Shown here one piece after another: positions 76-35,551 of a DNA stretch of 43,795 nucleotides. The notes below the pieces were generated by a model, which saw only the letters and a list, made by a program, of their open reading frames with translations, did not search any database and had not been told where the DNA came from. The position numbers and the translations under genes were made by a program. The DNA comes from Minisyncoccota bacterium (GTDB lineage: Bacteria; Patescibacteriota; Minisyncoccia; Phycocordibacterales; UBA918). Every line of letters starts with the position of its first letter. The first letter of the stretch is position 1. The DNA lies in assembly GCA_035760625.1 (NCBI GenBank), contig DASTSP010000042.1:1-43795 (forward strand), written 5' to 3'.

Positions 76-1761
76 GTGATGCGTATGGAAGGAGAGATAC
101 GAGAGCTCATCGACGCCGCGCTTGCCGCGAAGGGTCTCGACGCCGTCGCCGTTACCGTCGAGCACCCGGCCGATGAGTCGCACGGCGACTACGCGACGAA
201 CGCGGCGCTCGTCGCCGCGAAGCGACTGGGCGCGAATCCTCGCGCGCTCGCGGAAGACCTCGTGGCCCAGATGGCGGGGAAGTCGCCGAACATTGAATCC
301 ATCGAGGTCGCAGGACCCGGGTTCATCAATTTTCACATTGCACGGAGCTTCTTCGCGGAAGCCGTCGCGAACGCACGTGCGAAGGGGGACGCGTACGGAA
401 CGAACGATACGCGAAAGGGCCAGGAGATACTCTTCGAGTACACGAGTCCGAACCTATGGAAGCCGCTCCATGTCGGGAATCTGGTCGGAAATATAGTCGG
501 TGAGTCCGTCTCGCGGCTCTTCGAAGCGGAGGGTGCGACGCTCCGTCGCATAAATTACCCGTCGGACATCGGCCTAACCGTCGCGAAGGGCGTCTGGGGC
601 CTTAAGAAGACGGGCGGCGACCCCGAAGATATCAACGCCATTGGCGAGGCGTACCGGGTTGGAAACGAGGCGTATGAAACCGACGAGACCGCGAAGACGG
701 AGATCGAGGCGGTGAACCGCGCGCTCTACGCGGGCGACGACGAAGGACTAAAAGCGCTTCGCGAGAGGGGGCTTCGGACGTCGCACCGCCACCTTATGGA
801 GCTTTGCCGCATGCTCGGGACGTCGTTCGACCTCGAGATACGCGAGAGCGAGGTGAGCGATATCGGCACGGAGCTCGTTCGGACGCATACGGGCGACGTG
901 TTCGTGGAGAGCAACGGCGCGGTCGTCTTCCCGGGTGAGCAATATGGACTCCATACGCGCGTCTTCCTCAACTCGCAAGGTCTCCCGACGTACGAAGCGA
1001 AGGACCTCGGTAACTTCGCGCGGAAGGAACGTGCGTACCCCCATTGGACGCACTCGTATATCGTGACGGGCGGGGAACAGCGCGAGTATTTCATGGTTCT
1101 CTTCGAGGCGATGCGAAGGGTGTTCCCGGACACTGCCGATAAGATCCTCGCGCACATCCCCACGGGATTTCTCACGCTCACGACCGGGAAGATGTCCTCG
1201 CGGAAGGGAAACGTCCTCACCGCGGAGTCGCTTCTTGCGAGCCTTATGGAGGAGGTAGAGAAGCGAGCGACGGAGAGCCGCGCGGAGAACCTTGCCTCGC
1301 TCGTCGAAGAGGTCGCTGTCGGCGCGCTCAAGTATCAGATACTCCGCCAGGCCGCAGGGCAGGACATCGTCTTCGATAAAGAGCGCGCGCTCTCGCTTGA
1401 GGGAGACTCCGGCCCGTACCTAATGTACGCGCACGCACGCATGAGCTCCATCGAGGAGAAGGCCGCGGCGGCGGGTATGCACGCGGGAACGGACGCACCA
1501 GAGGTGCCGTACGCTCTCGAGCGCTTTCTCTACCGCTTTCCCGAGGTCGTTCTCCGGGCCGGTCACGAGTGCGCGCCGCACCACCTCGTCGTCTACCTCA
1601 CCGAACTCGCGAGTCGCTTTAACGCCTTTTACGCCGTGGAGAAGATCGTCGATGACGGCGACCCGTATGCCCCCTATAAGCTCTCGCTCACGAAAGCCGC
1701 GCGCGTCGTTCTTCGAAACGGGCTCGCGCTTCTCGGTATCGCGGCTCCGGAGCGAATGTAG
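76..1761 (+). CDS. argS: arginyl-tRNA synthetase
   Basis: 561-aa ORF with class I aaRS blocks (KPLHVGN HIGH-like, GKMSSRKG KMSKS-like) and an ArgRS-type C-terminal anticodon-binding region. Start is ambiguous (GTG 76, ATG 79, ATG 85). ATG 79 lies 7 nt after a TAGTAT -10-like hexamer at 67-72. Confidence 0.93.
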   Translation: MMRMEGEIRELIDAALAAKGLDAVAVTVEHPADESHGDYATNAALVAAKRLGANPRALAEDLVAQMAGKSPNIESIEVAGPGFINFHIARSFFAEAVANARAKGDAYGTNDTRKGQEILFEYTSPNLWKPLHVGNLVGNIVGESVSRLFEAEGATLRRINYPSDIGLTVAKGVWGLKKTGGDPEDINAIGEAYRVGNEAYETDETAKTEIEAVNRALYAGDDEGLKALRERGLRTSHRHLMELCRMLGTSFDLEIRESEVSDIGTELVRTHTGDVFVESNGAVVFPGEQYGLHTRVFLNSQGLPTYEAKDLGNFARKERAYPHWTHSYIVTGGEQREYFMVLFEAMRRVFPDTADKILAHIPTGFLTLTTGKMSSRKGNVLTAESLLASLMEEVEKRATESRAENLASLVEEVAVGALKYQILRQAAGQDIVFDKERALSLEGDSGPYLMYAHARMSSIEEKAAAAGMHAGTDAPEVPYALERFLYRFPEVVLRAGHECAPHHLVVYLTELASRFNAFYAVEKIVDDGDPYAPYKLSLTKAARVVLRNGLALLGIAAPERM

Positions 1762-2678: not shown

Positions 2679-5600
2679 ATGTCTGATACACATAGCGCCA
2701 TGGAAAACAATGAAAAGAGCGACGCCGCGCGTCGCGAGGAGGAAGTACTCGCGTTCTGGAAGGAGCGCGACATTTTTCATAAGAGCCTTACGAAGGACGC
2801 GCCGAAAGGCGATTACGTTTTCTACGACGGACCTCCGTTCGCGACGGGTACGCCGCACTACGGGCACATACTCGCGGGCACCATCAAGGACGCGATACCG
2901 CGATTCTTCACGATGCGCGGTTACCGGGTGAAGCGAAAGTGGGGCTGGGACTGCCACGGGCTTCCCCTCGAGAACATCATCGAGAAAAAGCTCGGACTCG
3001 CGACGAAGCGAGACATCGAGGAGCTTGGCGTGAAGAAGTTCAACGAGGCCGCGCGCGAGGCGGTCCTCGAATACGAGGACGACTGGAAGGAGGTCGTGCC
3101 GCGCATGGGACGCTGGGTCGACATGGAGCACGACTACAAGACGATGGACTCGACGTATACGGAGTCCGTATGGTGGGCGTTCTCGGAGCTCGATCGACAA
3201 GGTCTCGTCTACGAGGGTTTCAAATCGATGCATCTTTGCCCACGCTGCGGGACGACGCTTTCCAATTTCGAGGTGAACCAGGGCTACAAGGACATCAAGG
3301 ATATCGCGGTCACCGTCAAACTCCCGCTCCTCGGTACGGATGGAAACGTGACGGATACGTCGCTCCTCGTTTGGACGACGACGCCGTGGACGCTCCCGGG
3401 GAACATGGCCGCGGCGGTCAATTCGGAAATCGAGTACGTGAAGGTCCGCGTTCCGATAGAAGACGGTGACGAGGTCGTCATTCTCGCGAAGGAGCGGCTT
3501 GCGCAGTTGGATACCGACGCGTACGAGGTTCTCGAAACCATGAAAGGGAAGGACCTCGTCGGTCTCCGCTACGAGCCGCCTTTCGACTATTACAAGCACG
3601 AGGAGTTTCAGAATAAGGAGCACGCGTGGAAGGTGTACCACGCGGACTACGTCGAAGTCGGCGAGGAGGGGACAGGTGCCGTCCACCTCGCGCCCGCCTA
3701 CGGCGAGGAGGACCTCGAGCTCGCGAAGCGAGAAGGTATTCCCGTCATCCACCACGTCGGAGAGGATGGCCGTTTCAAGGACGTCATCACCGATTTCAAG
3801 GGGCGCCTCGCGAAGCCGAAGGACGATGACGCGACCGGCGTGACGCATCTCGAAGCGGACATCGAGGTCGTGAAAGCGCTCAAGGAACGGGGTCGTCTCT
3901 TCAGGAAGGAGAACATTACGCACAGTTACCCGCACTGCTGGCGCTGTGATACGCCGCTCCTTAATTTCGCGACGACGTCGTGGTTCGTTCGCGTGTCCGA
4001 GATGCGGGATACCCTCGTCGCCGAGAACGCGAAAATACGCTGGGTTCCCGAGTACGTCGGGCGCGCACGCTTCGGCAATTGGCTCGAAGGAGCGCGCGAT
4101 TGGGCGATCTCGCGTCAGCGTTACTGGGGCGCACCGCTACCCATTTGGAGGAATCCTAAGACGAAGGAACATCGAGTCATCGGTTCTTTGGCCGAACTTC
4201 AGGCACGCGTTCGAAAGAGCGGTAATACGTACGTCATCGCGCGCCATGGCGAATCCGTGTTCAATACGAAGTCGCTCCTAAGCTCGCTCGCAGAGACGGA
4301 GAACCCGCTTAGCGCCACGGGCCGAGAACAGGTGAAGCATGCCGCAAAGGCGCTTCGAGAGCGCGGCATCGACGTCATCTACACGTCTCCGCTCGGTCGT
4401 ACGAGGGAGACGGCGGACATGTTTGCCGAGGCGCTCGGTATGCCGAGGGAGCGCGTCATCGAAGACGAGCGACTCGGTGAGGTTCGCTTCGGCGAGTTCG
4501 AGGGGAAACTGATCGACGAATACCACGCGTACTTCAAGGACGGGCATGAACGCCTCACGAAGAGGCCGGAGGGCGGCGAGTCGTGGACCGAGTTGAAGCG
4601 TCGCATGGGGTCGTTCCTCTACGATATCGACGCGAAGCATACGGGGGAGCGCGTTCTCATCGTCTCGCATAACGGTCCTATTCAGATGCTTCGCGCCGCG
4701 GCGGCGGGAGACGACAGAGCGACGACCGCGAAGCGCATCGACGACAACGCGTACGACGTCGCGAACGCCGAGCTCTCTGATCTCGCGTTCACGCCGATGC
4801 CCCACAACGACGACTTCGAACTCGACTACCACCGACCGTACATCGACGAGATCGACCTCTTCGACCCCGATGGCAGGAAGCTCGAGCGGGTTCGTGACGT
4901 CTTCGACTGCTGGTTCGAGTCCGGCTCGATGCCGTACGGCCAGAATCACTACCCGTTCGAGAACCTCGACGCGTTCGACCCGGGGAAGGGCGCGGGATAT
5001 CCGGCCGAGTTCATCGCCGAGGGGCTCGACCAGACGCGCGGCTGGTTCTATTCGCTCCTCGTCCTCGGGACGGCGCTCTTCAAGCGCGCGCCGTATCGCC
5101 ATGTCATCGTGAACGGGCTCGTCCTCGCCGAGGACGGGAAGAAGATGTCGAAGCGGCTTCAGAACTACCCCGACCCCATGGCGCTCGCCGACCGCGTCGG
5201 CGTCGATGCGATGCGGTTCTACCTACTCTCGTCGCCGGTCGTGCGCGGCGAGGACCTCAATTTCTCCGAGAAGGAGGTTCGCGAGCTCGAGCGGAAGAAC
5301 ATCGGCCGACTCCACAACGTCCTCGCGATGTACGAGATGTACGCCGACGGCACCGCGGCGTCGGACTCCTCGGACAATGTCCTCGACCGATGGATGGTCG
5401 CGCGCCTTCGCGAGGCGACGAAGGAGATGACCGACGGGTACCTCGCGTACGAGCTCGACCGCGCGACGCGCCCCATCGAGGGACTCATTGACGACCTTTC
5501 CGTCTGGTATCTTCGCCGTTCGCGCGAGCGTCTCAAGGGCATCGACGCGAAGGACCGCGCGCGCACTCTCTCGACGCTTCGCTACGCGCTCCGCACCGTC

Positions 5601-10180: not shown

Positions 10181-11599
10181 ATGGCGAACAAGTATCTCAC
10201 CACGACGCTGCCGTACGTGAACGCCGACCCGCACGTCGGCTTCGCGTACGAGCTCGTCGCTGCCGACGCGCTCGTCCGCTACTGGAAGGCGACCGGAGAC
10301 GACGTCTTCTTCAATACGGGAACGGACGAGCACGGTCAGAAGATAGCCGGGAAGGCCGACGAGAAGGGGGAGAGCCGCCAGGCGTACGTCGACCACTACG
10401 CGAACGAGTTTCGAAAATTGATACCGGCCCTCGGCGTTTCCGAGGACATCCATTTCATACGTACTACCGACGAACGCCACAAGAAGGCGGCCGAGGAGCT
10501 CTGGCGCCGGTGCGAGGCCGCGGGCGACATCTATAAGAAGAAGTACAAGGGGCTCTACTGCGTCGGCGACGAGATGTTCGTAAAGGAGAGCGAGCTCGTT
10601 GACGGCAGGTGCGCGAATCACCCGAACCTCGAACTCGAGGAGATCGAGGAGGAGAACTACTTCTTCAAGCTCTCGAACTACCAGTCGTACCTCGAGGAAT
10701 ACCTCTCTCGGGACGGTGTCATCGTCCCCGAGTGGCGACGGCAGGAGGCGCGGAGCTTCGTGAAGAAGGGTCTCGAGGACTTCAGCATCTCTCGCGAGAA
10801 GGCGCGTCTCGATTGGGGCATTCCGGTCCCGGGCGATGAGAACCAGGTCATGTACGTATGGTTCGACGCCCTCACGAACTACGTCTCGACCTTGGGCTGG
10901 CCCGAGGATACTGAAGGAAACTACGAGAAATTCTGGAAGAGCGGCGAACCGATGCAGATAGCGGGGAAGGACCAGGTCCGCTTCCAGTCCGTCATGTGGC
11001 AGGCGATGCTCAAATCGGCCGGTCTCGCGCCGACCGCGAAGGTCCTCTACCACGGGTTCATCACCTCGGGAGGTCAGAAGATGTCGAAGTCATTGGGGAA
11101 CGTCGTGAGTCCCTTCGAGCTCGTCTCGCGCTACGGCACAGAGGCGACACGCTACCTCCTCCTTCGCCACGTCCATCCCTTCGAGGATACTGACGTCACG
11201 TGGGAGCGCCTCGACGAGTGGTACAACGCGGGACTCGTGAACGGCATCGGGAACCTCACCGCGCGCATCCTCAAGATGTCCGAGACGCACCTCGGCGCGT
11301 TCGAAGCCCACGACTTCATATCTGAGATGAAGGGCATGGAGGAGTATGACTGTAAGAGCGCGCTCGACTACCTCTGGTCGCGCATCCAGGCGCTCGATGA
11401 GAAGATAGCCGAGACCGAGCCTTTCAAGCTCGTGAAGACGGAACCCGAACGTGCGAAGGCGATCCTCGAGGAACTGCGCGCCGACCTCTACAGGCTCTCC
11501 ATCGAACTCCGGCCGTTCATGCCCGCGACGGCCGTGACGATAGAGGAGGCGGTCAAAGCGAACAAGAAGCCGGAGAATCTCTTCGCGCGCATCGACTGA
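10181..11599 (+). CDS. metG: methionyl-tRNA synthetase (short form, no C-terminal tRNA-binding domain)
   Basis: 472-aa ORF with TTLPYVNADPHVGF (HIGH), GTDEHGQKI and KMSKSLGN. Confidence 0.95.
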   Translation: MANKYLTTTLPYVNADPHVGFAYELVAADALVRYWKATGDDVFFNTGTDEHGQKIAGKADEKGESRQAYVDHYANEFRKLIPALGVSEDIHFIRTTDERHKKAAEELWRRCEAAGDIYKKKYKGLYCVGDEMFVKESELVDGRCANHPNLELEEIEEENYFFKLSNYQSYLEEYLSRDGVIVPEWRRQEARSFVKKGLEDFSISREKARLDWGIPVPGDENQVMYVWFDALTNYVSTLGWPEDTEGNYEKFWKSGEPMQIAGKDQVRFQSVMWQAMLKSAGLAPTAKVLYHGFITSGGQKMSKSLGNVVSPFELVSRYGTEATRYLLLRHVHPFEDTDVTWERLDEWYNAGLVNGIGNLTARILKMSETHLGAFEAHDFISEMKGMEEYDCKSALDYLWSRIQALDEKIAETEPFKLVKTEPERAKAILEELRADLYRLSIELRPFMPATAVTIEEAVKANKKPENLFARID

Positions 11600-11600
11600 T

Positions 11601-11966
11601 ATGAGGAAGGTGTACAACAAGCTCGTTCGGGACAAGATGATCGACGTCTACAAGCACGACGTCGAGAACAAGATAAGCTCGAGCGATTACAGCGTTCGCT
11701 ACCTCAATCCGGCGGAGACCTTGGAGGAATTAAAGAACAAACTCCTCGAGGAGGTGGCGGAGGTCTTCGAGGCGTACGGGAAGGACAGGGAACACCTCAA
11801 GGAGGAGATCGCCGACGTCATCGAGGTCATCGACGCGATACTCTTTCACAACGGCATGACCCTCGACGAAGTTCTCACAATACGCGACGCGAAGAAGGCG
11901 AAGAAAGGCGGTTTCGAGACCGGCCTGTATCTCGAGAGCATCGATTACTTCGATAGCGCCGAATAA
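11601..11966 (+). CDS. MazG-superfamily all-alpha NTP pyrophosphohydrolase (COG4997-like house-cleaning enzyme)
   Basis: 121-aa ORF with N-terminal KLVRDKMI and a central EExAEVxE...EEIADVIEV acidic helix pair typical of MazG/PRA-PH-like proteins. Confidence 0.7.
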   Translation: MRKVYNKLVRDKMIDVYKHDVENKISSSDYSVRYLNPAETLEELKNKLLEEVAEVFEAYGKDREHLKEEIADVIEVIDAILFHNGMTLDEVLTIRDAKKAKKGGFETGLYLESIDYFDSAE

Positions 11967-11998
11967 GAAACATACGATTAATCGTATGTTTCTTATTC
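11961..11998. repeat. 38-bp perfect palindrome (P1) spanning both convergent stop codons
   Basis: GAATAAGAAACATACGATT|AATCGTATGTTTCTTATTC, every position verified complementary. It contains the TAA of the + gene (11964-66) and the TTA (stop on the - strand) at 11993-95. It probably acts as a bidirectional terminator and/or second operator. Confidence 0.9.
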
Positions 11999-12409
11999 TC
12001 TTGTGAATTTGAGCAAGGTTTTCTTCCAGCGTCCTCGGCCCCTCGGAGGAAAGCCCATCTGCAGGATCCTTTCCAGCGTTTCCACTATCCGAGTGTATTC
12101 GCCTTTGTCTTCCGTTACGAACCGTCGTATTGCGCCGTATTTCCCAATTTCATAATTGAGCCTTATACGGTCGGTGGTAGAGGGGCTGAGATTGAGAAGT
12201 ACGGACACTCGATACGAAGAGACGCCTTCGGTGTAGAGGATGATCGCCGCGAGTCGTTTCGCGAACATGAGCCGCTCTTCCTCTCCGAATAGTTCGCTCA
12301 GAAACGCGGACGCTCGTTTCGAATCGAGTTGCGCGACAACCTTGTATAACTGATTCAAGAGTTGGTCTTCCTTCTTATGTGGTAGTTTACGTTTGGAGAC
12401 ATGTGTCAT
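11993..12409 (-). CDS. TrpR/YerC-YecD family DNA-binding protein
   Basis: 138-aa ORF with ...EERLMFAKRLAAIILYTEGVSSYRVSVLLNLSPSTTDRI..., the helix-turn-helix pattern of Trp-repressor-like YerC proteins. GC is visibly lower than in the neighbours. Confidence 0.7.
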   Translation of the reverse strand: MTHVSKRKLPHKKEDQLLNQLYKVVAQLDSKRASAFLSELFGEEERLMFAKRLAAIILYTEGVSSYRVSVLLNLSPSTTDRIRLNYEIGKYGAIRRFVTEDKGEYTRIVETLERILQMGFPPRGRGRWKKTLLKFTRE

Positions 12410-12444
12410 ATCACAATCATACGATTAATCGTATGATTGTGATA
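12409..12444. promoter_or_regulatory. 36-bp perfect palindrome (P2): candidate operator overlapping divergent -10 elements
   Basis: TATCACAATCATACGATT|AATCGTATGATTGTGATA shares the 18-bp core CATACGATTAATCGTATG with P1. TATGAT reads on both strands (12432-37 on +, 12416-21 on -). The minus-strand copy ends 6 nt before the ATG at 12409. Confidence 0.7.
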
Positions 12445-12454
12445 GGGAGAGCGT

Positions 12455-13087
12455 GTGCTATGCTGGTTCGCAATGACGGAGAACGGAAAAGGTATCGTGG
12501 ACATCGGTAGACTCATCCTCGCGTTCGCGAAGGTAAACCGCGCAACGACGATGGAGGACGGCGTGACGCCGGAATCGGACACCGACCACACGGTCATGCT
12601 CTCCGTCGTCGCCTCTGCCTTCGCCAAGAAGCTCTACCCGGACTCGCTCGACGTGGGGCGAGTCGCCGAGTTCGCCATCGTCCACGACCTCGTCGAAGCG
12701 TACGCCTGTGACACCGATAGTTTTGGCATCAGCGCGGAGGCAAAGCGAGCGAAGGACGAGCGAGAGCGCGAAGCGTACCTTCGCATCGAGCGCGAGTTTC
12801 GGGACACGTTCCCGTGGATTCCCGAGACCATCGCGGCGTACGAGCGCCTCGATAGCCGCGAAGCGCGTTTCGTGAAGACCGCGGACAAGCTCCTGTCGAA
12901 GGTGACGCATATCCTGAACGGCGGCGCATACTTCAAGTCGCGCGGCATGGATGAAGAGACGATGTGGAATAATTACCAGCAGATGGTGCGCGCCGCCGAG
13001 GAGAAGTACGGCGCGGAATTCCCGGAGGTCCTCGCCCTCATGGACGAGCTCATTAGGGAAGCGAAGCGAATCGCCTATGGAGCATAA
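12455..13087 (+). CDS. HD-domain phosphohydrolase (YfbR-like 5'-nucleotidase family)
   Basis: DTDHTVMLSVVA ... AIVHDLVEAYACD ... KTADKL give the H..HD..D pattern. GGGAGA Shine-Dalgarno at 12445-50. The start may be GTG 12455 or ATG 12473. Confidence 0.8.
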   Translation: MLCWFAMTENGKGIVDIGRLILAFAKVNRATTMEDGVTPESDTDHTVMLSVVASAFAKKLYPDSLDVGRVAEFAIVHDLVEAYACDTDSFGISAEAKRAKDEREREAYLRIEREFRDTFPWIPETIAAYERLDSREARFVKTADKLLSKVTHILNGGAYFKSRGMDEETMWNNYQQMVRAAEEKYGAEFPEVLALMDELIREAKRIAYGA

Positions 13088-13475
13088 GACCTTCAAGGAC
13101 ATCTACGCGATAGCGGAACGGAACGTGAAGGAGAATCCGTACGTACGCGAAAAGGAGGCCGATGAGATCATCGGTATCTATCTCGATTGGCTTCGCGGCG
13201 AGGTAGAAGAAGTGAGGGATGAAACGAAACCAAGGAATAGGATACATCTCGCCGATGAGCTCGCAGATATACTCTGGGTGTACGCGGGGCTCTTAGCAGT
13301 TCTCAAGGATAGAGGGTATATCGATTCGGTCGAAGAGGTCTTCATGCAGTCGCACGAGAAGTATACCGAGCGTATGCCGGCATTTTTACGAAGCTCCGCT
13401 GAGCTGTGGGAATCCATCAAGGCGAGGCAGAAGGAAGACCTCGCCCTGCGTCATCAAAAGGAATATGGACAGTGA
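13077..13475 (+). CDS. MazG-type nucleotide pyrophosphohydrolase
   Basis: ORF track 12951..13475 trimmed to ATG 13077 (MEHKTF...). LRGEVEEVRDE...ADELADILW acidic motifs are present. It overlaps the HD gene end by 11 nt. Confidence 0.8.
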   Translation: MEHKTFKDIYAIAERNVKENPYVREKEADEIIGIYLDWLRGEVEEVRDETKPRNRIHLADELADILWVYAGLLAVLKDRGYIDSVEEVFMQSHEKYTERMPAFLRSSAELWESIKARQKEDLALRHQKEYGQ

Positions 13476-14277
13476 ATTTCGATACATCGACGTGCACACG
13501 CACCTTAACCTCGATGCGTTCGACGCTGATCGCACGGCGGTCGAAACGAGGACTCTCGAAGACCGCGTCGCACACATAAACGTAGGGACCGCGCGGGAAA
13601 CAAGCGAGGCGGCGATTCGTCTCGCAGAGTCGTTTAATGCCGGCGTCTACGCGACGGTCGGCCTCCATCCCGTTCGCGCGAGCGGCGCATCGGAGCACGA
13701 GGGCACGGAGGCGTTCGACCACGAGGCGTTTCAGGCGCTCGGAGCGCATGAGAAGGTCGTCGCGATCGGCGAGTGCGGCCTCGACTACTTTCGCGTCGAG
13801 AAAGATACGAAGGCGAAGCAGGAGGGGGCCTTTAGCGCGCAGATAGCGCTCGCGAACGAGCTCGAAAAGCCGCTCATGCTCCACATCCGCGACGAGAAGG
13901 GAAAGATGGACGCGTACGAGGATGCGCTCGCCATACTGAAGCGCGAGGCGAAGGTTCTCGGGAACGTGCACTTCTTCGCGGGGACGTACGACATCGCGAA
14001 GCGCTTCTGGGAGATGGGGTACACGACGTCCTTCACCGGCGTCGTCACCTTCGCAGATGAGTACGATGACATCATTAAAAACGCGCCGCTCGACATGCTC
14101 CACGCGGAGACCGATGCGCCGTACGTCGCTCCCGTGCCCTTTCGTGGGACGCGGAACGAGCCCGCGCACGTCCGCGAAGTGTACGCGCGCATCGCGGCGC
14201 TTCGAAGCGAGGACCCTGAAGTAGTGCGCCGGGCCCTTCTCGAGAACGCCCGTCGGCTCTTCGGCGTCCTTATTTGA
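13465..14277 (+). CDS. tatD: TatD-family metal-dependent hydrolase/DNase
   Basis: YIDVHTHLN, GECGLDY, LHIRD, VHFFAG and ETDAPY motifs. It overlaps the preceding gene by 11 nt, which suggests an operon. Confidence 0.9.
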   Translation: MDSEFRYIDVHTHLNLDAFDADRTAVETRTLEDRVAHINVGTARETSEAAIRLAESFNAGVYATVGLHPVRASGASEHEGTEAFDHEAFQALGAHEKVVAIGECGLDYFRVEKDTKAKQEGAFSAQIALANELEKPLMLHIRDEKGKMDAYEDALAILKREAKVLGNVHFFAGTYDIAKRFWEMGYTTSFTGVVTFADEYDDIIKNAPLDMLHAETDAPYVAPVPFRGTRNEPAHVREVYARIAALRSEDPEVVRRALLENARRLFGVLI

Positions 14278-14330
14278 CAGTGGCGTCCTGAACGCTTACC
14301 TTGTTTCAAGACATACTTCGGAGAGAGACC

Positions 14331-14621
14331 ATGGAACCGGGAGAAGAGACCTGCGGCGTCCTTACGTCGGACATCCACATCACCGGCGGTTCGGCAGAAC
14401 CGCTCGAATGCCTTCGACCGCGGCACCAGTTCGGCCAACACCTCATCAGGCGCGACGACGGAGGCTACGTCGCCTACGAAACGGATTGGACGTGCGGCTG
14501 CGAGATGTGCCAGTCCGATGAGCCGGACGATTGGTGCGAGATCTATCGCGACGTCAGCGACGAGGAGGCGAAATACCTTCTCGGCTCTGCGGACGCGGAG
14601 CTGAAGGGTTTCCAAGACTGA
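14331..14621 (+). CDS. hypothetical Cys-rich acidic protein
   Basis: GGAGAGAGA Shine-Dalgarno just upstream of ATG 14331, 96 aa with six Cys (CxC..C cluster WTCGCEMC). I recognise no family. Confidence 0.5.
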   Translation: MEPGEETCGVLTSDIHITGGSAEPLECLRPRHQFGQHLIRRDDGGYVAYETDWTCGCEMCQSDEPDDWCEIYRDVSDEEAKYLLGSADAELKGFQD

Positions 14622-19690: not shown

Positions 19691-19700
19691 CGCTTCGATA

Positions 19701-19735
19701 TGAAAACCGCCGGCCCGTAGGGCCGGCGGTTTTCA
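19701..19735. terminator. bidirectional terminator (membrane protein / recA)
   Basis: TGAAAACCGCCGGCCC GTA GGGCCGGCGGTTTTCA, a perfect 16-bp stem with A/T-runs on both sides. Confidence 0.9.
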
Positions 19736-19742
19736 TATCCGC

Positions 19743-27336: not shown

Positions 27337-27385
27337 AGGGAAACGAAAAATGCACGCGCATCGCGCGTGCATTTTTCGTTTCCCT
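27337..27385. terminator. 23-bp perfect-stem hairpin (second terminator or insulator)
   Basis: AGGGAAACGAAAAATGCACGCGC ATC GCGCGTGCATTTTTCGTTTCCCT, with all 23 pairs verified. Confidence 0.65.
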
Positions 27386-31356: not shown

Positions 31357-31852
31357 GCATATTCCGGAAACGAGATTGATAAGGTCTCGTTTCTAAAATC
31401 CTACGTGTTCGACGCACGTAGGTGTGTTCGCTATTCGAGAGAATAGCGGACGCCAGGTAAGCGCATGCAGCGAAGAGGACAATGCTTCGGCAGGGTCTTT
31501 TCGTCCGCTGCATGCACGACACAAAGTCTCACCTGAGCTTGTATCTCAGGTGAGCGCACTCAAAAATTGTACAGCGGTGTACAGCGTTCGTGTAATAGAC
31601 TATCGCGGCACAAAAGATGCCGTGTCCAGCCTTCCTTACAGGAACGATAAGGGTGTATGGTGGATGCCTTGGCTTCAAAGAGCGATGAAGGACGTGGTAT
31701 GGCTGCGATAAGCGCGGGGGAGATGCCAAACGATCGTAATATCCCGCGATGTCCGAATGAGGAAACTCACCTGCTTACGGCAGGTACCCTCGCAAGAGGG
31801 AGCGCACCCGGTGAAGTGAAACATCACAGTAGCCGGAGGAAGAGAAAGCAAC

Positions 31853-31918
31853 ACAGGGAGGTTTCTTTCTGATCGGAGGGCCGCAAGGCTCACCATTACG
31901 GTCAGGAAGAAGCTTCTT
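31853..31918 (+). other. 66-nt helical expansion/intervening segment in 23S domain I
   Basis: Inserted between GAAAGCAAC and GCGATCCCCTAAGTAGCGGCGAGCGAA, which are contiguous in E. coli. It folds as TTTCTTTC/GGAAGAAG plus CTGATCG/CGGTCAG plus a GCC-GCAA-GGC tetraloop hairpin. Confidence 0.7.
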
Positions 31919-32188
31919 GCGATCCCCTAAGTAGCGGCGAGCGAAAAGGGAAGAGCCCAAACCATTCGTGTTTACACGAATGGGGTTGTAGGGCAGGAGC
32001 GTCATTTAGTTGAGAAGAGTCACCAATTGGTGTGATAGCAGAACGCGTTGGGAAGCGCGACCCTAGCAGGTAATAGTCCTGTATGCGAAATTACATCAAC
32101 TCTTTTGCTTCTGTTCCTGAGTAGTTCGAGACATGAATAGCTCGAATGAATCTGGGAGCACTAACTCCTAAGGCTAAATATCTTTGAA

Positions 32189-32234
<46 letters not shown>

Positions 32235-32802
32235 GGAGAGGGGAGTGAAATAGAACTGAAACCATACATCTACAAGGAGTCGGAGCCCTGCGGGGCGACG
32301 GCGTGCCTATTGAAGAATGAGCCGGCGAGTGTATCTGTATCCTTTGTCTAAGCGGTAACCCCGCGGAGGCACAGTGAAAGCGAGCGTGAATAGCGCGAAT
32401 ATAGGGTACGGATACGACCCGAAGCGGGACGAGCTTGCCATGAGCAGGGTGAAGCGGGGGTAAAACCCCGTGGAGGCCCGAACCGGTGGACCGTTCAAAA
32501 TCCTCGGATGACTTGTGGTAGGGAGTGAAAAGCTAATCGAGTTCCGTAATAGCTGGTTCTCTCCGAAACAGCTTTAGGGTTGGCGTCGCGTGTTCCTCCT
32601 GGGGGTAGAGCACTGGAAGGTCTAAATAGGGGGAAACCCCGTTAGACCTATCAAACTACGAATACCAGGCAGTTAGAGCGCGGCAGTTAGACTACGGGGG
32701 AGAAGCTCCGTTGGTCAAAAGGGAAACAGCCCAGATCGCCAGTTAAGGTCCCTAAATATATGCTCAGTGCGTCTTGAGGAGGTGAGGATTCACTAACAGT
32801 CA

Positions 32803-32834
<32 letters not shown>

Positions 32835-33676
32835 GAAAGCGTAACAGCTCACTGATCGAGAGTCCTCGCGCCGAAGATGATCGGGGCTTAAGCATATTAC
32901 CGAAACTGCGGATTGTACGTTTCTTCGGAAACGTACAGTGGTAGGAGAGCGTTCTCTGTTGCGATGAAGGGAAGGTGAGAACCGCCCTGGAGTACAGAGA
33001 AGTGAGAATGCCGGCACAAGTAACCGCAAGATGGGTGAGAACCCCATCCGCCGAAATACCAAGGTTTCCTTCGCTATGCTGATCAGCGAAGGGTTAGTCG
33101 GTCCTAAGCCGATCCCGACAGGGGGAGGCGATGGATAGCAGGTTAATATTCCTGCACACTGTTCTGTTCGAAGGAGGGACGAAGCGTTGTACTCGAAGCA
33201 TCTTATTGGATTGGTGCTGGAGCTACGAGGAGGTCTGGTAGGCAAATCCGCCGGACATTAACTCCGAGTAGAGTCTGAACCTAAGGCTACGGCCGAGGGA
33301 ACGAGAGGAGCACGCTTTCGAGAAAAACTTCTAAGGTTAAGCAGGACGGTTCCGTACCGCAAACCGACACAGGTGGTAGGGTCGAGAAGACCAAGGCGAA
33401 CGAGTGAGGGGTCCTTAAGGAACTCGGCAAAAAAGCGGCCGTAACTTCGGGATAAGGCCTGCCCTTTCTCCGCAAGGAGGCGGGGCCGCAGCGAAAGATT
33501 TCCTGGCGACTGTTTAACAAAAACACAGCTCTCTGCGAAGACGTAAGTCAATGTATAGAGGGTGACGCCTGACCAATGCCGGAAGGTCAAACATGGAAGG
33601 TGGTACGGATTCGTCCGTACTGCTGGGCTATGTAAGCCCCGGTCAATGTCAGCGATAACTATAATCGTTCTAAGGT

Positions 33677-33866
33677 ACCGCGCGCGTCCACGACGCGCGC
33701 GGTAGGACTGGAACGATTATGGGAGTGTAAAACAGATACGCATAAAGCTACCTTTGCGCGCAGCGATGCACGCATTGTCCAAATGTGACCATCAAGAGAC
33801 CAAATGTCACACACCTCTCTGAGGTGAAGATAGAGTCCTTCTTGCAAAAGAAAAAAGGAACAGAAG
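33677..33866 (+). other. 190-nt insertion in 23S at E. coli position U1931 (candidate intron / intervening sequence)
   Basis: The conserved CTAAGGT|AGCG.AGTTCCTTGTCGGG is interrupted. The flanks read ...CTAAGGT | ACCGCG...CAGAAG | AGCGCAGTTCC. Internal hairpins include a 9-bp CCGCGCGCG stem and a TTCTT-GCAA-AAGAA tetraloop. Confidence 0.75.
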
Positions 33867-34505
33867 AGCGCAGTTCCTTGTCGGGTAAGTTCCGACGTGC
33901 ACGAAAGGCGTAACGACTGGGAAACTGTCTCAAGGACCTGCTCGGTGAAAATACAATGGGGGTGAAGATGCCCCCTACCTGCAATTAGACGAAAAGACCC
34001 CAGGAGCTTTACTGTAGCTTCGTATTGAGGCTGTTTGATTGATGCGTAGCATAGATGGGAGAGGTTGAAGCGTTCCTTTCGGGGGACGTGGACTCGTCAG
34101 TGAAATACCATTCTTCAATTGGGCAGTTTCTAACCTCGTTGGCAAAACCTTCGAGAGACAGTGCGTGGCAGGCAGTTTTAGTGGGGCGCTACCCTCCTAA
34201 AGAGTAACGGAGGGGTCTCAAGGTTGGCTAGGTGCGAATGGAAACCGTACCGATAGTGTAATGGCATAAGCCAGCTTGACTGTAAGGTGTCAGTACCGAA
34301 CAGATGCGAAAGCAGAGCATAGTGAACCGATGGTCCGCGTTAGATGCGGCCAGAGATTATCTGACAAAAGTTACCCTGGGGATAACAGGCTAGTCGTGCC
34401 CAAGCGTCCATAGCGACGGCACGGTTCGGCACCTCGATGTCGGCTCAACTTATCCTGGGGCTGGAGCAGGTCCCAAGGGTTTGGCTGTTCGCCAATTAAA
34501 AAGTT

Positions 34506-34543
<38 letters not shown>

Positions 34544-34815
34544 CTCTATCTATTGCAGGCGTCGATTCTTGAAGAGATTTGTCCCTAGTACGAGAGGACC
34601 GGGATGAACTGACCTCTGGTCTATCTGCTGTCACGCCAGTGGCACCGCAGAGTAGCTATGTCGGGAACGGATAACTGCTGAAAGCATCTAAGCAGGAAGC
34701 CGACTCTAAGATGAGGAATCATTAAGTCCCCTGAGAGATGATCAGGTTGATAGGCATCAGATGGAAGCACAGTAATGTGTTGAGTCGAGATGTACTAATA
34801 GGACGTAGTTCCTGT

Positions 34816-34834
34816 AGGGAATGCTGCACATGGC
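34816..34834 (+). repeat. 19-bp direct repeat copy 1 (overlaps the 23S 3' end)
   Basis: AGGGAATGCTGCACATGGC is identical to 34913-34931. Confidence 0.9.
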
Positions 34835-34912
34835 ACACGCGCCGTGTACGCAAGAACTCCGATTCGGACATACGTTCGAATTCGAAAGCAACCGTCGCAC
34901 GCGCTCGGTTGG

Positions 34913-34931
34913 AGGGAATGCTGCACATGGC
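34913..34931 (+). repeat. 19-bp direct repeat copy 2 (in 23S-5S spacer)
   Basis: Identical 19-mer 97 nt downstream of copy 1. The intervening 78 nt contains the palindrome TTCGAATTCGAA. Confidence 0.9.
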
Positions 34932-35008
34932 GATACGCGATGGAGGCATGAACGCTGGACTGCTGACAATTTTTGAAGTGTTTGTACCTGATACGGAATA
35001 TGCGATGT

Positions 35009-35081
35009 CGAGGGTGTGGCGCAGCTGGTAGCGCGTCGGCCGTGAGGCCGAAGGTCGTTGGTTCGAATCCAACCACCCCGA
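35009..35081 (+). tRNA. tRNA-like element, probable pseudo-tRNA or processing signal, with a non-canonical anticodon loop
   Basis: It has a canonical D-arm (GCGC AGCTGGTA GCGC), an AGGTC variable loop and a perfect T-arm (GTTGG TTCGAAT CCAAC). The anticodon arm is TCGGC-CGTGAG-GCCGA with only a 6-nt loop and no U33. The top of the acceptor stem has G/G and A/C mismatches, or a bulged A. No CCA is encoded. Confidence 0.55.
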
Positions 35082-35088
35082 CCCGACC

Positions 35089-35120
35089 CCGCGGACGGAC
35101 GAAATTCGGTCCGTCCGCGG
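35089..35120 (+). other. 12-bp perfect hairpin in the spacer (candidate processing stem)
   Basis: CCGCGGACGGAC GAAATTCG GTCCGTCCGCGG with no T-run. Confidence 0.6.
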
Positions 35121-35154
35121 AGGCACGTGTTCATTCGAGAATTGAATATTTAAA

Positions 35155-35254
35155 GTTGGTGCTATAGCGAGAAGGGTGAGACAGTCCGGGGGACTGTCGC
35201 AAGACCTTGAGCAGTTGCTGCGAAAGGTGTACAGCTCCTGTAAGGAGCACCGAC
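35155..35254 (+). ncRNA. 5S-like structured RNA candidate (shares 5S leader and helix I, unrelated interior)
   Basis: The closing helix GTTGGTGCT / AGCACCGAC has 9 bp with one G-U. The first 23 nt are near-identical to the true 5S 5' end. The interior has an 8-bp GACAGTCC/GGACTGTC hairpin but lacks 5S loop C and loop E motifs. Confidence 0.45.
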
Positions 35255-35283
35255 GAACGTAGATTGAAAATTGAATATTTAAA

Positions 35284-35391
<108 letters not shown>

Positions 35392-35401
35392 TTTAAGTAT
35401 T

Positions 35402-35441
35402 CAAAAGAAAAAACTACCCGTTTGGGTAGTTTTTTCTTTTG
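35402..35441 (+). terminator. rRNA operon terminator
   Basis: CAAAAGAAAAAACTACCC GTTT GGGTAGTTTTTTCTTTTG. Confidence 0.9.
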
Positions 35442-35551
35442 ATGTCCCTAAAGTGACGAATTAGTTTTGTCGACTTCGTCCAGCGGTTTCCTCTGGTAGA
35501 GGAAACTGAGACAGAAATTCAGCATAGTCGCTTCGCTCGTTGCTTCATTTC

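Follow-up and report, generated by a model that had tools for sequence, protein, structure and literature searches.

Background

It has been reported that the operators of the tryptophan repressor TrpR and of HisR, the TrpR-family histidine repressor to which YerC and the protein of PDB entry 3G1C belong, are 20-bp palindromes, that the HisR operator has a variable centre of 6 bp, and that approximately half of the hisR genes are autoregulated (PMC9413887). In this work we analyzed a stretch of 43,795 nucleotides (the window) from a Minisyncoccota bacterium (assembly GCA_035760625.1, contig DASTSP010000042.1, positions 1 to 43,795), in which a gene for a TrpR/HisR-like helix-turn-helix (HTH) protein, hereafter the regulator, is bracketed by two perfect palindromes, P1 and P2. 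The palindromes are very probably the operators of the regulator, and the regulator itself is probably a dimeric repressor of the TrpR/HisR fold from a large subfamily restricted to the candidate phyla radiation (CPR/Patescibacteria), a grading that applies to this explanation as a whole. CPR bacteria are mostly uncultured and their gene regulation is almost unstudied, and the locus provides a concrete, testable protein-operator pair. A prior description of such a system in CPR bacteria was not found in the searchable literature, and the comparisons given below point to an undescribed regulatory system in these organisms.

Two palindromes bracket a TrpR/HisR-like gene

P1 (38 bp) and P2 (36 bp) have a common 18-bp core, CATACGATTAATCGTATG, as had been claimed in a preliminary description made from the sequence alone. 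The core has exactly two occurrences in the window with up to three mismatches allowed (0.02 expected from shuffled sequences), and of the nine perfect palindromes in the window that have no loop and arms of 7 nt or more, P1 and P2 are by far the longest. The positions given for them relative to the regulator gene were also correct: P1 includes the TAA stop codons of two convergent genes, a MazG-like open reading frame (ORF; 11964-11966) and the regulator gene (11993-11995, minus strand), which are 26 bp apart, and the first base of P2, 12409, is the A of the regulator ATG. The only degenerate copy in the window, TACGAACCGTCGTA at 12116-12129 inside the regulator gene, fits TACG-N6-CGTA with an asymmetric centre and is probably a chance match.

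When searched alone, the window regulator gave a weak match to HTH_23 of Pfam, and no NCBIfam model matched it. For the Trp_repressor family of Pfam (PF01371), weak matches were obtained with 24 of 30 family members, the best at 3.7e-7, and one distant homologue has a precomputed PF01371 match. A family profile made from an alignment of 29 homologues matched PDB entries 3KOR, 3G1C, and 3FRW with E-values from 1.4e-4 to 2e-3. Furthermore, the AlphaFold2 model of the regulator (pLDDT 81.8, pTM 0.70) has a TrpR-like all-helical fold with the helix-turn-helix in helices D-E, and in a Foldseek comparison with the PDB ranks 1 to 13 were all TrpR-like structures, including E. coli TrpR (probability 0.89-1.0, target-normalised TM 0.64-0.79), with weak E-values of 0.1-1. 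The assignment of the protein as TrpR/YerC-like, first made by inspection, is therefore borne out by both profile and fold.

The 29 proteins came from the first homologue search, were at most 65% identical to the regulator, and all belonged to Patescibacteria metagenome-assembled genomes (MAGs), labelled Nomurabacteria or Kaiserbacteria, or to metagenomes. In their alignment the HTH region is invariant and the C-terminal motif LPPRGRGRWK is conserved. A profile search of 1.84 billion cluster representatives extended the family to 864 clusters at 50% identity (E<=1e-10). No trp or his genes adjoin the regulator in the CPR loci examined. One protein from the profile search (P0264) is 3724 aa long and contains 14 separate regulator-profile stretches, that is, many tandem TrpR-like HTH modules.

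Palindromes flank the homologues as well. In each of the four homologue loci examined first, the regulator gene was flanked by two perfect palindromes with one core per genome, and these cores differed between the genomes (e.g., GATTAATC, GATCGATC, and GGTTAACC). A scan of metagenomes added 71 loci at 30-56% identity. When the 62 distinct regulators flanked on each side by 60 nt or more were counted, with a palindrome defined by perfect arms of at least 8 nt, 41 had palindromes on both sides, 7 only upstream, 6 only downstream, and 8 on neither side; the same 14-mer was present in the upstream and downstream copies of 38 of the 41 two-sided cases. Approximately 250 perfect palindromes with arms of at least 9 nt were found in 800 kb of homologue loci, where about 3 are expected. 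The core sequence varies widely between loci (GTACG.., TTACG.., ATACG.., TTTCGGTTAACCGAAA, TTTCAGTTAACTGAAA, CTTCAGTATACTGAAG, CTCCAATCGATTGGAG, and CTATCATATATGATAG) and is lineage-specific, yet equal upstream and downstream within a locus. The window core was also found at loci L082 and L133, whose regulators are 49-52% identical to that of the window. On this sequence comparison, the palindrome bracket is a hallmark of the family.

The protein and the palindrome also vary together. Residue 77 of the recognition helix corresponds in the alignment to Ala80 of TrpR, which contacts DNA. Where base -4 of the palindrome is G, this residue is invariably Ser (39 of 39), and where the base is A, it is Ala, Val, or Thr in most cases (12 of 14). 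The pattern (Fisher p = 3e-10, a value uncorrected for phylogeny) is present in several separate clades. Given this covariation and the bracketing of the gene in the majority of relatives, it is very probable that the palindromes are the binding sites of the regulator, as was supposed in the preliminary description. The likeness to the E. coli trp operator noted there holds at the level of architecture, since a 7-6-7 arrangement is common to the family palindromes and to the 20-bp operators of TrpR and HisR (PMC9413887). The regulator would accordingly read a 20-bp 7-6-7 palindrome, which in the window has the form (A/T)CATACG-ATTAAT-CGTATG(T/A). At one further locus, L102, a 50-bp perfect palindrome of tandem TAGTACGTTC units (1202-1251) lies 83 nt upstream of a regulator whose flanking operators have another core, CCTTTCGGTTAACCGAAAGG, and two specificities may meet there.

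The low GC content of the regulator gene (0.496, against 0.60-0.62 for GlyRS, MetRS, HD, and TatD) had been noticed from the sequence, and it had led to the suggestion that the palindrome-gene-palindrome unit could be an acquired cassette. The identical flanking repeats and a single possible deletion junction, described below for sequencing run X4, would also be in line with a recently acquired unit, mobile, invertible, or excisable. However, the comparison of neighborhoods does not agree with recent acquisition. About 45 loci, with regulators as little as 34% identical, preserve the gene order TatD<-regulator-><-MetRS(-GlyRS), and the GC content of the regulator is below that of both neighbors in 22 of 23 orthologous loci. 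By its best matches alone, the source would be a CPR bacterium from the Paceibacteria/Kaiserbacteria neighborhood, and its GC content of 59% is unusually high for this group. No recombinase is encoded, the scans of phage proteins and of viral contigs (for the core) gave no match, and the PADLOC defence models detected only TatD/QatD homology. Since the synteny is old and the low GC content is common to the gene family, the cassette reading was rejected, and its probability is next to nil.

P2 as a probable divergent promoter-operator

In a consensus promoter scan of positions 11000-14500, promoter-like sites (ATCACA, 16 nt, TATGAT) were confined to P2, where each strand has one. The preliminary description had reported TATGAT on both strands of P2, with the plus-strand copy facing the HD-MazG-TatD operon, and this was confirmed for both elements (12421-12416 on the minus strand and its mirror image at 12432-12437 on the plus strand). 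The regulator start has no Shine-Dalgarno sequence, and in every one of the 16 distinct relatives whose palindrome centre is 17.5 nt from the ATG, the end of a TAnnAT hexamer precedes this codon by exactly 6 nt. This conserved spacing of the -10 element to the ATG predicts a leaderless regulator mRNA, in support of what had been proposed from the window itself. The -35-like hexamers in the outer arms of the upstream copies are weak, since no more than 5 of 16 loci reach 4 of 6 matches; they offer one reason for the extension of the symmetry to the start codon.

P2 would be the main operator, covering the -10 hexamers of two mirror-image promoters, and a single dimer bound at its core would shut both. 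The first promoter would direct the leaderless mRNA of the regulator, resulting in negative autoregulation, and the second would direct the divergent HD-MazG-TatD nucleotide-hydrolase operon, which would be repressed in the same manner; both effects are predicted because one dimer would cover both -10 elements. Metatranscriptome contigs cover HD-MazG-TatD from 12526 on, without the regulator gene, which is weakly compatible with this model, as these are contigs only and DNA carry-over is possible. For all runs, the public reads were used in the form of contigs.

P1 as a probable 3' operator and hairpin

As an RNA, P1 folds with -25.8 kcal/mol on the plus strand and -22.6 kcal/mol on the minus strand (z approximately -6), and its outer arms are A-rich and T-rich (AATAAGAAA and TTTCTTATT). 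Many downstream copies in relatives resemble textbook bidirectional terminators, for instance AGAAAAAACCTTTCGG..CCGAAAGGTTTTTTCT. Since P1 contains both of the convergent stop codons, with 26 bp between them, it is the only candidate for ending both transcription units. The operator core would be re-used here as the stem of a hairpin terminator that is transcribed from either side, and P1 most likely ends both units; when bound by the protein, it would be a second operator or roadblock, insulating the regulator gene from GlyRS-MetRS read-through. Both roles, roadblock and terminator, are put forward as inference. The AT-rich, operator-identical stem is unusual for this genome, because other terminators in the window have GC-rich unique stems: three other perfect inverted repeats (19697-19739, 27337-27385, and 35401-35442), each consisting of an A-run, a GC-rich stem, and a T-run, look like ordinary bidirectional intrinsic terminators.

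The strong folding of both P1 and P2 as RNA, the A-run and T-run flanks of P1 and of many downstream copies, and the fact that the other terminators of the window are likewise perfect inverted repeats would all be expected if the palindromes were structures independent of the protein, P1 being a bidirectional intrinsic terminator, P2 a promoter or 5'-leader element, and the common core a product of local duplication or gene conversion. This explanation is very improbable. It leaves unexplained the covariation of the half-site with a residue of the recognition helix, the fixed distance of 17.5 nt from centre to ATG, and the in-frame copies that follow the lineage-specific sequence, and P2 lies outside both predicted transcripts. 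There was also no relevant Rfam family match, either at the locus with a permissive threshold or in the whole window at the gathering threshold, the only local match being a sub-threshold U7. The coordinates of all features of the locus are collected in Table 1.

Table 1. Positions of the palindromes, promoter elements, and genes of the regulator locus in the window
Feature	Position	Strand	Remarks
P1, perfect palindrome GAATAAGAAACATACGATTAATCGTATGTTTCTTATTC	11961..11998	strand-neutral	38 bp, 19-nt arms, zero loop; 100% complementary in inverted-repeat search
P2, perfect palindrome TATCACAATCATACGATTAATCGTATGATTGTGATA	12409..12444	strand-neutral	36 bp, zero loop; 100% complementary in inverted-repeat search
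Common 18-bp core CATACGATTAATCGTATG, copy in P1	11971..11988	strand-neutral	
Common 18-bp core CATACGATTAATCGTATG, copy in P2	12418..12435	strand-neutral	
Small MazG-like gene	11601..11966	plus	last of GlyRS-MetRS unit; convergent with regulator, stop inside P1
Regulator gene	11993..12409	minus	138 aa; TrpR/HisR(YerC)-like helix-turn-helix and C-terminal extension with motif LPPRGRGRWK
-10-like TATGAT, putative regulator promoter	12416..12421	minus	ends 6 nt before A of ATG (12409)
-35-like ATCACA, putative regulator promoter	12438..12443	minus	16-nt spacer
-10-like TATGAT, putative HD-MazG-TatD promoter	12432..12437	plus	predicted start ~12444
-35-like ATCACA, putative HD-MazG-TatD promoter	12410..12415	plus	
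Shine-Dalgarno-like GGGAG	12445..12449	plus	5 nt before GTG of HD gene
HD-domain hydrolase (HD_3 / YfbR-like 5'-deoxynucleotidase)	12455..13087	plus	first gene of divergent operon
MazG-type nucleotide pyrophosphohydrolase	13077..13475	plus	
TatD-family hydrolase	13465..14277	plus	conserved divergent partner of regulator across the family

Further copies in related genomes

Copies of the palindrome are not restricted to the regulator gene. A pattern scan for TAGTACGRTYRAYCGTACTA, with one genome per species and about 9 chance matches expected (our own estimate from database size and pattern degeneracy), returned 63 stretches, of which about 59 were in Patescibacteria, with several per genome. 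Related genomes contain 3 to about 10 exact copies each; the exact 20-mer was found at no more than about 8 loci per MAG, and in a 997-kb contig at 4 sites. Of 68 exact sites in CPR loci, 24 are within ORFs, 18 flank the regulator, 10 are between tandem genes, 9 are between convergent genes, 4 are in divergent promoter regions, and 3 have one side undefined. Near-matches are fewer, 14 in the 428 kb that contain the 68 exact sites, and a single array supplies 7 of them. Copies are located just upstream of the genes for LysRS (17.5 nt from the start), MreB, a peroxiredoxin, and an exonuclease, and downstream of those for SecY/Adk, PGK, L28, L32, and MiaA. Two contigs binned as Patiriisocius (Flavobacteriaceae) contain family-type palindromes with arms of 13-14 nt (L051, 3871-3890; L053, 7657-7676) and may be mis-binned CPR contigs.

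The intragenic copies are read in a single frame, giving the peptide (N/Y)ST(V/I)(N/D)RT, and occur at an equal position in orthologues, namely in RsmI of 6 genomes, MurD of 5, LeuRS of 5, PrmC of 2, and ApbE of 2; the window holds none of rsmI, murD, leuS, prmC, or apbE. When 120 RsmI homologues (69-100% identical) were compared, the loop before RELTK was either short or contained a hexapeptide encoded by the palindrome, for example STVNRT, STINRT, or STIDRT (AGTACG..CGTACT); STVNCT; SPVNWT; IPVNWN (ATTCCAGTTAACTGGAAT); and also SPIDWT, LTIDRK, LSINRK, or MSINRH. The series STVNRT, STVNCT, SPVNWT, IPVNWN corresponds to single symmetric base changes, for which all intermediates were observed, and its G-to-A step at -4 is the same step that is paired with the change of Ser77 to Ala in the regulator. 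Moreover, one rsmI gene (L143) contains AACCTTACGATCGATCGTAAGGTT, the regulator operator of L071, another (L144) contains AATAGTCCAATCGATTGGACTATT, the regulator operator of L091, and the murD gene of L142 has a 34-bp perfect palindrome around TTCCAGTTAACTGGAA. Perfection is not strict at every site, because the rsmI copy of L142 has one mismatch and many RsmI loops carry decayed copies. In several relatives murD, murC, and rsmI are neighbors, placing the intragenic sites of murD and rsmI within a few kb (L142-L144), and in L144 a PhdYeFM/ParE toxin-antitoxin pair is inserted just before rsmI.

From these alignments we conclude that the intragenic copies are likely to be functional and to belong to a small regulon evolving together with the protein. 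The family would control a small dispersed regulon beyond its own locus, because the intragenic copies track the lineage-specific operator sequence, and within coding genes the copies could possibly be an internal promoter-operator or a roadblock. The local autoregulatory pair of the preliminary description is therefore present at the regulator gene but is too narrow an account, since the copies of relatives also lie inside coding genes. It had further been stated there that many occurrences of the core throughout the genome would speak for a generic element of the repetitive extragenic palindrome (REP) type. This is partly borne out, as further exact copies do exist in relatives, but they are few and at conserved positions, which is not what is seen with a generic REP.

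The same distribution bears on a REP/RAYT-like explanation, in which the palindromes are dispersed and propagated by themselves or by a protein, and the bracketed single-copy gene encodes a recognizer that maintains or spreads them, perhaps as hairpins or cruciforms. Such a system would account for a gene flanked by a dispersed palindrome, for the sites between convergent genes and within genes among the 68, and for a palindrome that is lineage-specific and vertically inherited with the gene, as well as for the strict symmetry even in a tolerated centre and perfect arms of up to 30 nt. Two observations of another kind would also fit, namely an asymmetric variant of which one genome has seven identical copies in a 2-kb stretch, and the DNA contig in which the sequence left of P1 is fused to that right of P2. 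Nevertheless, the protein has the TrpR fold and no HUH/Y1 or other catalytic domain, Pfam giving HTH-type matches only; exact copies number 3 to about 10 per genome and not hundreds, with few near-copies; the use of the same codon position in orthologues and the stepwise symmetric changes fit point-mutational co-evolution better than re-insertion; and the deletion junction was seen in just one of eight DNA runs, with assemblers known to misbehave at palindromes. We regard propagation of this kind as improbable.

The contig in question, 83 nt of DNA from run X4, leads from CCGAATAAGAAA, which flanks P1 on the left, through the core into the sequence on the right of P2, joining 11949-11988 to 12418-12488 without the 447 bp that contain the regulator gene. 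Apart from this, the contigs of the public runs are broken at the two palindromes, with one of them folding back at P2; the junction is possibly an artefact. The asymmetric copies belong to a Kaiserbacteria MAG (L008, 595-2700), in which a paralogous regulator (144..548) lacks the PPRGRGRWK tail and is adjoined by one perfect site and the seven copies, TAGTTCGGTTAACCGTACTA, each followed 15-25 nt on by GTGTGGTGTA(A/G)TTTT in G/T-rich non-coding DNA. This array looks like a multiplied promoter-like or repeat unit.

Sites that are few, highly conserved, symmetric, and tolerated inside coding genes, and that adjoin the gene of the protein as many parS sites do, could alternatively serve to organize the chromosome, as with parS/ParB, matS/MatP, and Noc, with transcription control being secondary. 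The sites in the 997-kb contig are unclustered (at approximately 251, 346, and 636 kb), the geometry at the regulator's own gene and at LysRS (17.5 nt) overlaps the promoter in a way that is typical of a repressor, and the fold family is one of metabolite-responsive repressors. A role of this kind is accordingly held to be very improbable, and repression from cognate operators is preferred.

Strict symmetry of the palindromes

Several results weigh against the operator explanation in its plain form or against parts of it. The window regulator itself matched PF01371 with E = 0.16 and 12.5 bits, below the cut-off of 27, and a third copy of the core is absent from the window, which covers only 43.8 kb of the genome. 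For P1, a simple terminator scan does not call the site, its stem being AT-rich, and the enrichment of at least 6 T in the 9 flanking nt is modest (17% of downstream copies compared with 9% of upstream copies), so that the terminator role is retained as an inference for P1 and not as a rule for the family. The operator-operator distance across the family is 422-564 bp (median 456) and has no helical phasing; with phasing non-significant, a phase-dependent repression loop was dropped as the main role of P1. The approximately 66 CPR matches are all symmetric in the centre, though the pattern allowed hybrids, palindromy is perfect over 36-60 bp with arms of up to 30 nt, the operator sequence diversifies fast, and intragenic copies are retained. 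Different centres coexist in one genome (L052 and L046 compared with L057 and L066).

A plain dimer-operator model is insufficient here, because a dimer that reads its half-sites independently would need none of these features. The symmetry could possibly result from quasi-palindrome correction by template switching or from a requirement for a hairpin or cruciform, and a REP/RAYT-like or structure-dependent reading is for this reason kept alive, at a low probability. Also unlikely is a CPR-wide "palindrome and reader" system in which a TrpR-fold protein and a few strictly symmetric palindromes evolve as a unit through stepwise symmetric changes and do not form an ordinary metabolite-responsive repressor and its targets; the palindromes that bracket the regulator gene, those behind convergent genes, and the in-frame ones in loops of essential genes (rsmI, murD, leuS, and others) would then be protein-dependent transcription stops or roadblocks, or hairpin or cruciform marks, and would together organize transcription in genomes that have next to no intergenic space. 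If this were true, the nucleic acid itself would need the symmetry for its function, or the symmetry would be kept up by an active process.

Other features of the window

P3 (25186-25205), AATAAGAATTAATTCTTATT, is a perfect 20-bp palindrome that the preliminary description had connected with P1. This connection was not borne out, because P3 is without the C-G/A at -5/-4 that is present in all half-sites of the family, and a P3-like site is conserved at an orthologous gene. The centre of P3 is 46.5 nt upstream of the ATG (25242) of a gene for a secreted or surface protein of 664 aa, and in the Kaiserbacteria MAG mentioned above (L008, approximately 5022-5041) AATATGAATTAATTCATATT is located about 60 nt upstream of the orthologous gene (659 aa); the two are a conserved palindrome with a symmetric double change. 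P3 appears, from its sequence and position, to be a separate operator of another factor, outside the P1/P2 family.

In the rRNA cluster (31637-35392), the 23S gene spans 3182 nt, compared with a model of 2925 nt, which suggests insertions. A tRNA at 35010-35083, between 23S and 5S, was reported by ARAGORN as tRNA-??? with no anticodon assigned.

Implications

The results largely support, as far as comparative sequence data can, a CPR-specific subfamily of the TrpR/HisR group with an added C-terminal tail, operators that bracket the gene, and a small, fast co-evolving regulon with in-frame sites. As the operator can be read from the DNA that flanks each gene, the family provides hundreds of natural protein-site pairs and hence a data set for the recognition code of the TrpR fold, whose first entry would be the pairing of residue 77 with base -4, Ser with G and Ala with A. 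The in-frame copies, in which a DNA-binding site dictates loop peptides of essential enzymes, would be a case of regulatory DNA constraining protein sequence. Furthermore, the conserved 3' operator raises the testable question of what keeps transcription units insulated from each other with only 26 bp between convergent stop codons.

Comparison with known systems

Additional repressor sites within or after coding regions are found for PurR in purB and at lac O2 and gal OI, where they block the elongating polymerase or help repression. Those sites are imperfect and belong to one operon, whereas the second site described here is perfect, is placed where the regulator's own gene ends, would also form a hairpin between two convergent genes, and is without phasing. 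In-frame insertion of palindromes is also the property of the Rickettsia palindromic elements (RPEs), selfish and numerous elements of 100-150 bp that insert peptides into surface loops of essential proteins, and are not known to have a cognate binding protein. The insert of the present family differs in being about 18-40 bp long, in its orthologous positions, and in its co-variation with the operator of the regulator.

The resemblance to the REPIN-RAYT system consists in a single-copy, vertically inherited gene that is flanked by dispersed palindromes, often between convergent genes, and in the lineage-specific sequence of the palindrome. However, RAYT is a HUH/Y1 transposase-like enzyme and the regulator is a TrpR-fold HTH protein, and REPs are imperfect, extragenic, and present in tens to hundreds of copies, whereas the palindromes studied here are a handful, perfect, and in many cases in frame at conserved positions.

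E. coli TrpR is closer. The fold is the same (1TRR, 1ZT9, and 1TRO are among the matches), a palindromic operator that overlaps the promoter and autoregulation are predicted for the family as well, and in some of its lineages the operators differ very little from the trp operator (TTCAGTTAACTGAA and CTAGTTAACTAG, respectively; trp, aroH, and trpR operators). In contrast, the sequence similarity is marginal, the family loci have no trp genes, and TrpR has neither a 3' operator nor intragenic regulon sites of the kind found in the family.

The closest system is HisR (YerC; PDB 3G1C, 3KOR, and 3FRW; PMC9413887), which gave the best profile and fold matches and is likewise a small all-helical HTH protein. 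Both have a 20-bp operator with a variable 6-bp centre, cacTTTA-n6-TAAAgtg in HisR and, as a putative operator, TAGTACG-n6-CGTACTA or CATACG-ATTAAT-CGTATG in the family, with lineage-specific motif variants, frequent autoregulation (predicted for the family), and a conserved S/T-x-R in the recognition helix. However, the family proteins are 135-141 aa long, compared with less than about 107 aa for HisR, and add two C-terminal helices and the AT-hook-like PPRGRGRWK. Their putative targets and motif are others than the his genes and the HisR operator that define the HisR group: no his genes are near the family regulator, and TatD/HD/MazG, aminoacyl-tRNA synthetases, rsmI, murD, and other genes take their place. 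Finally, the family is found only in CPR bacteria, its operator sequence diversifies much faster than that of HisR, and unlike HisR it also retains probable operators within coding genes and at the 3' terminus of the regulator gene.

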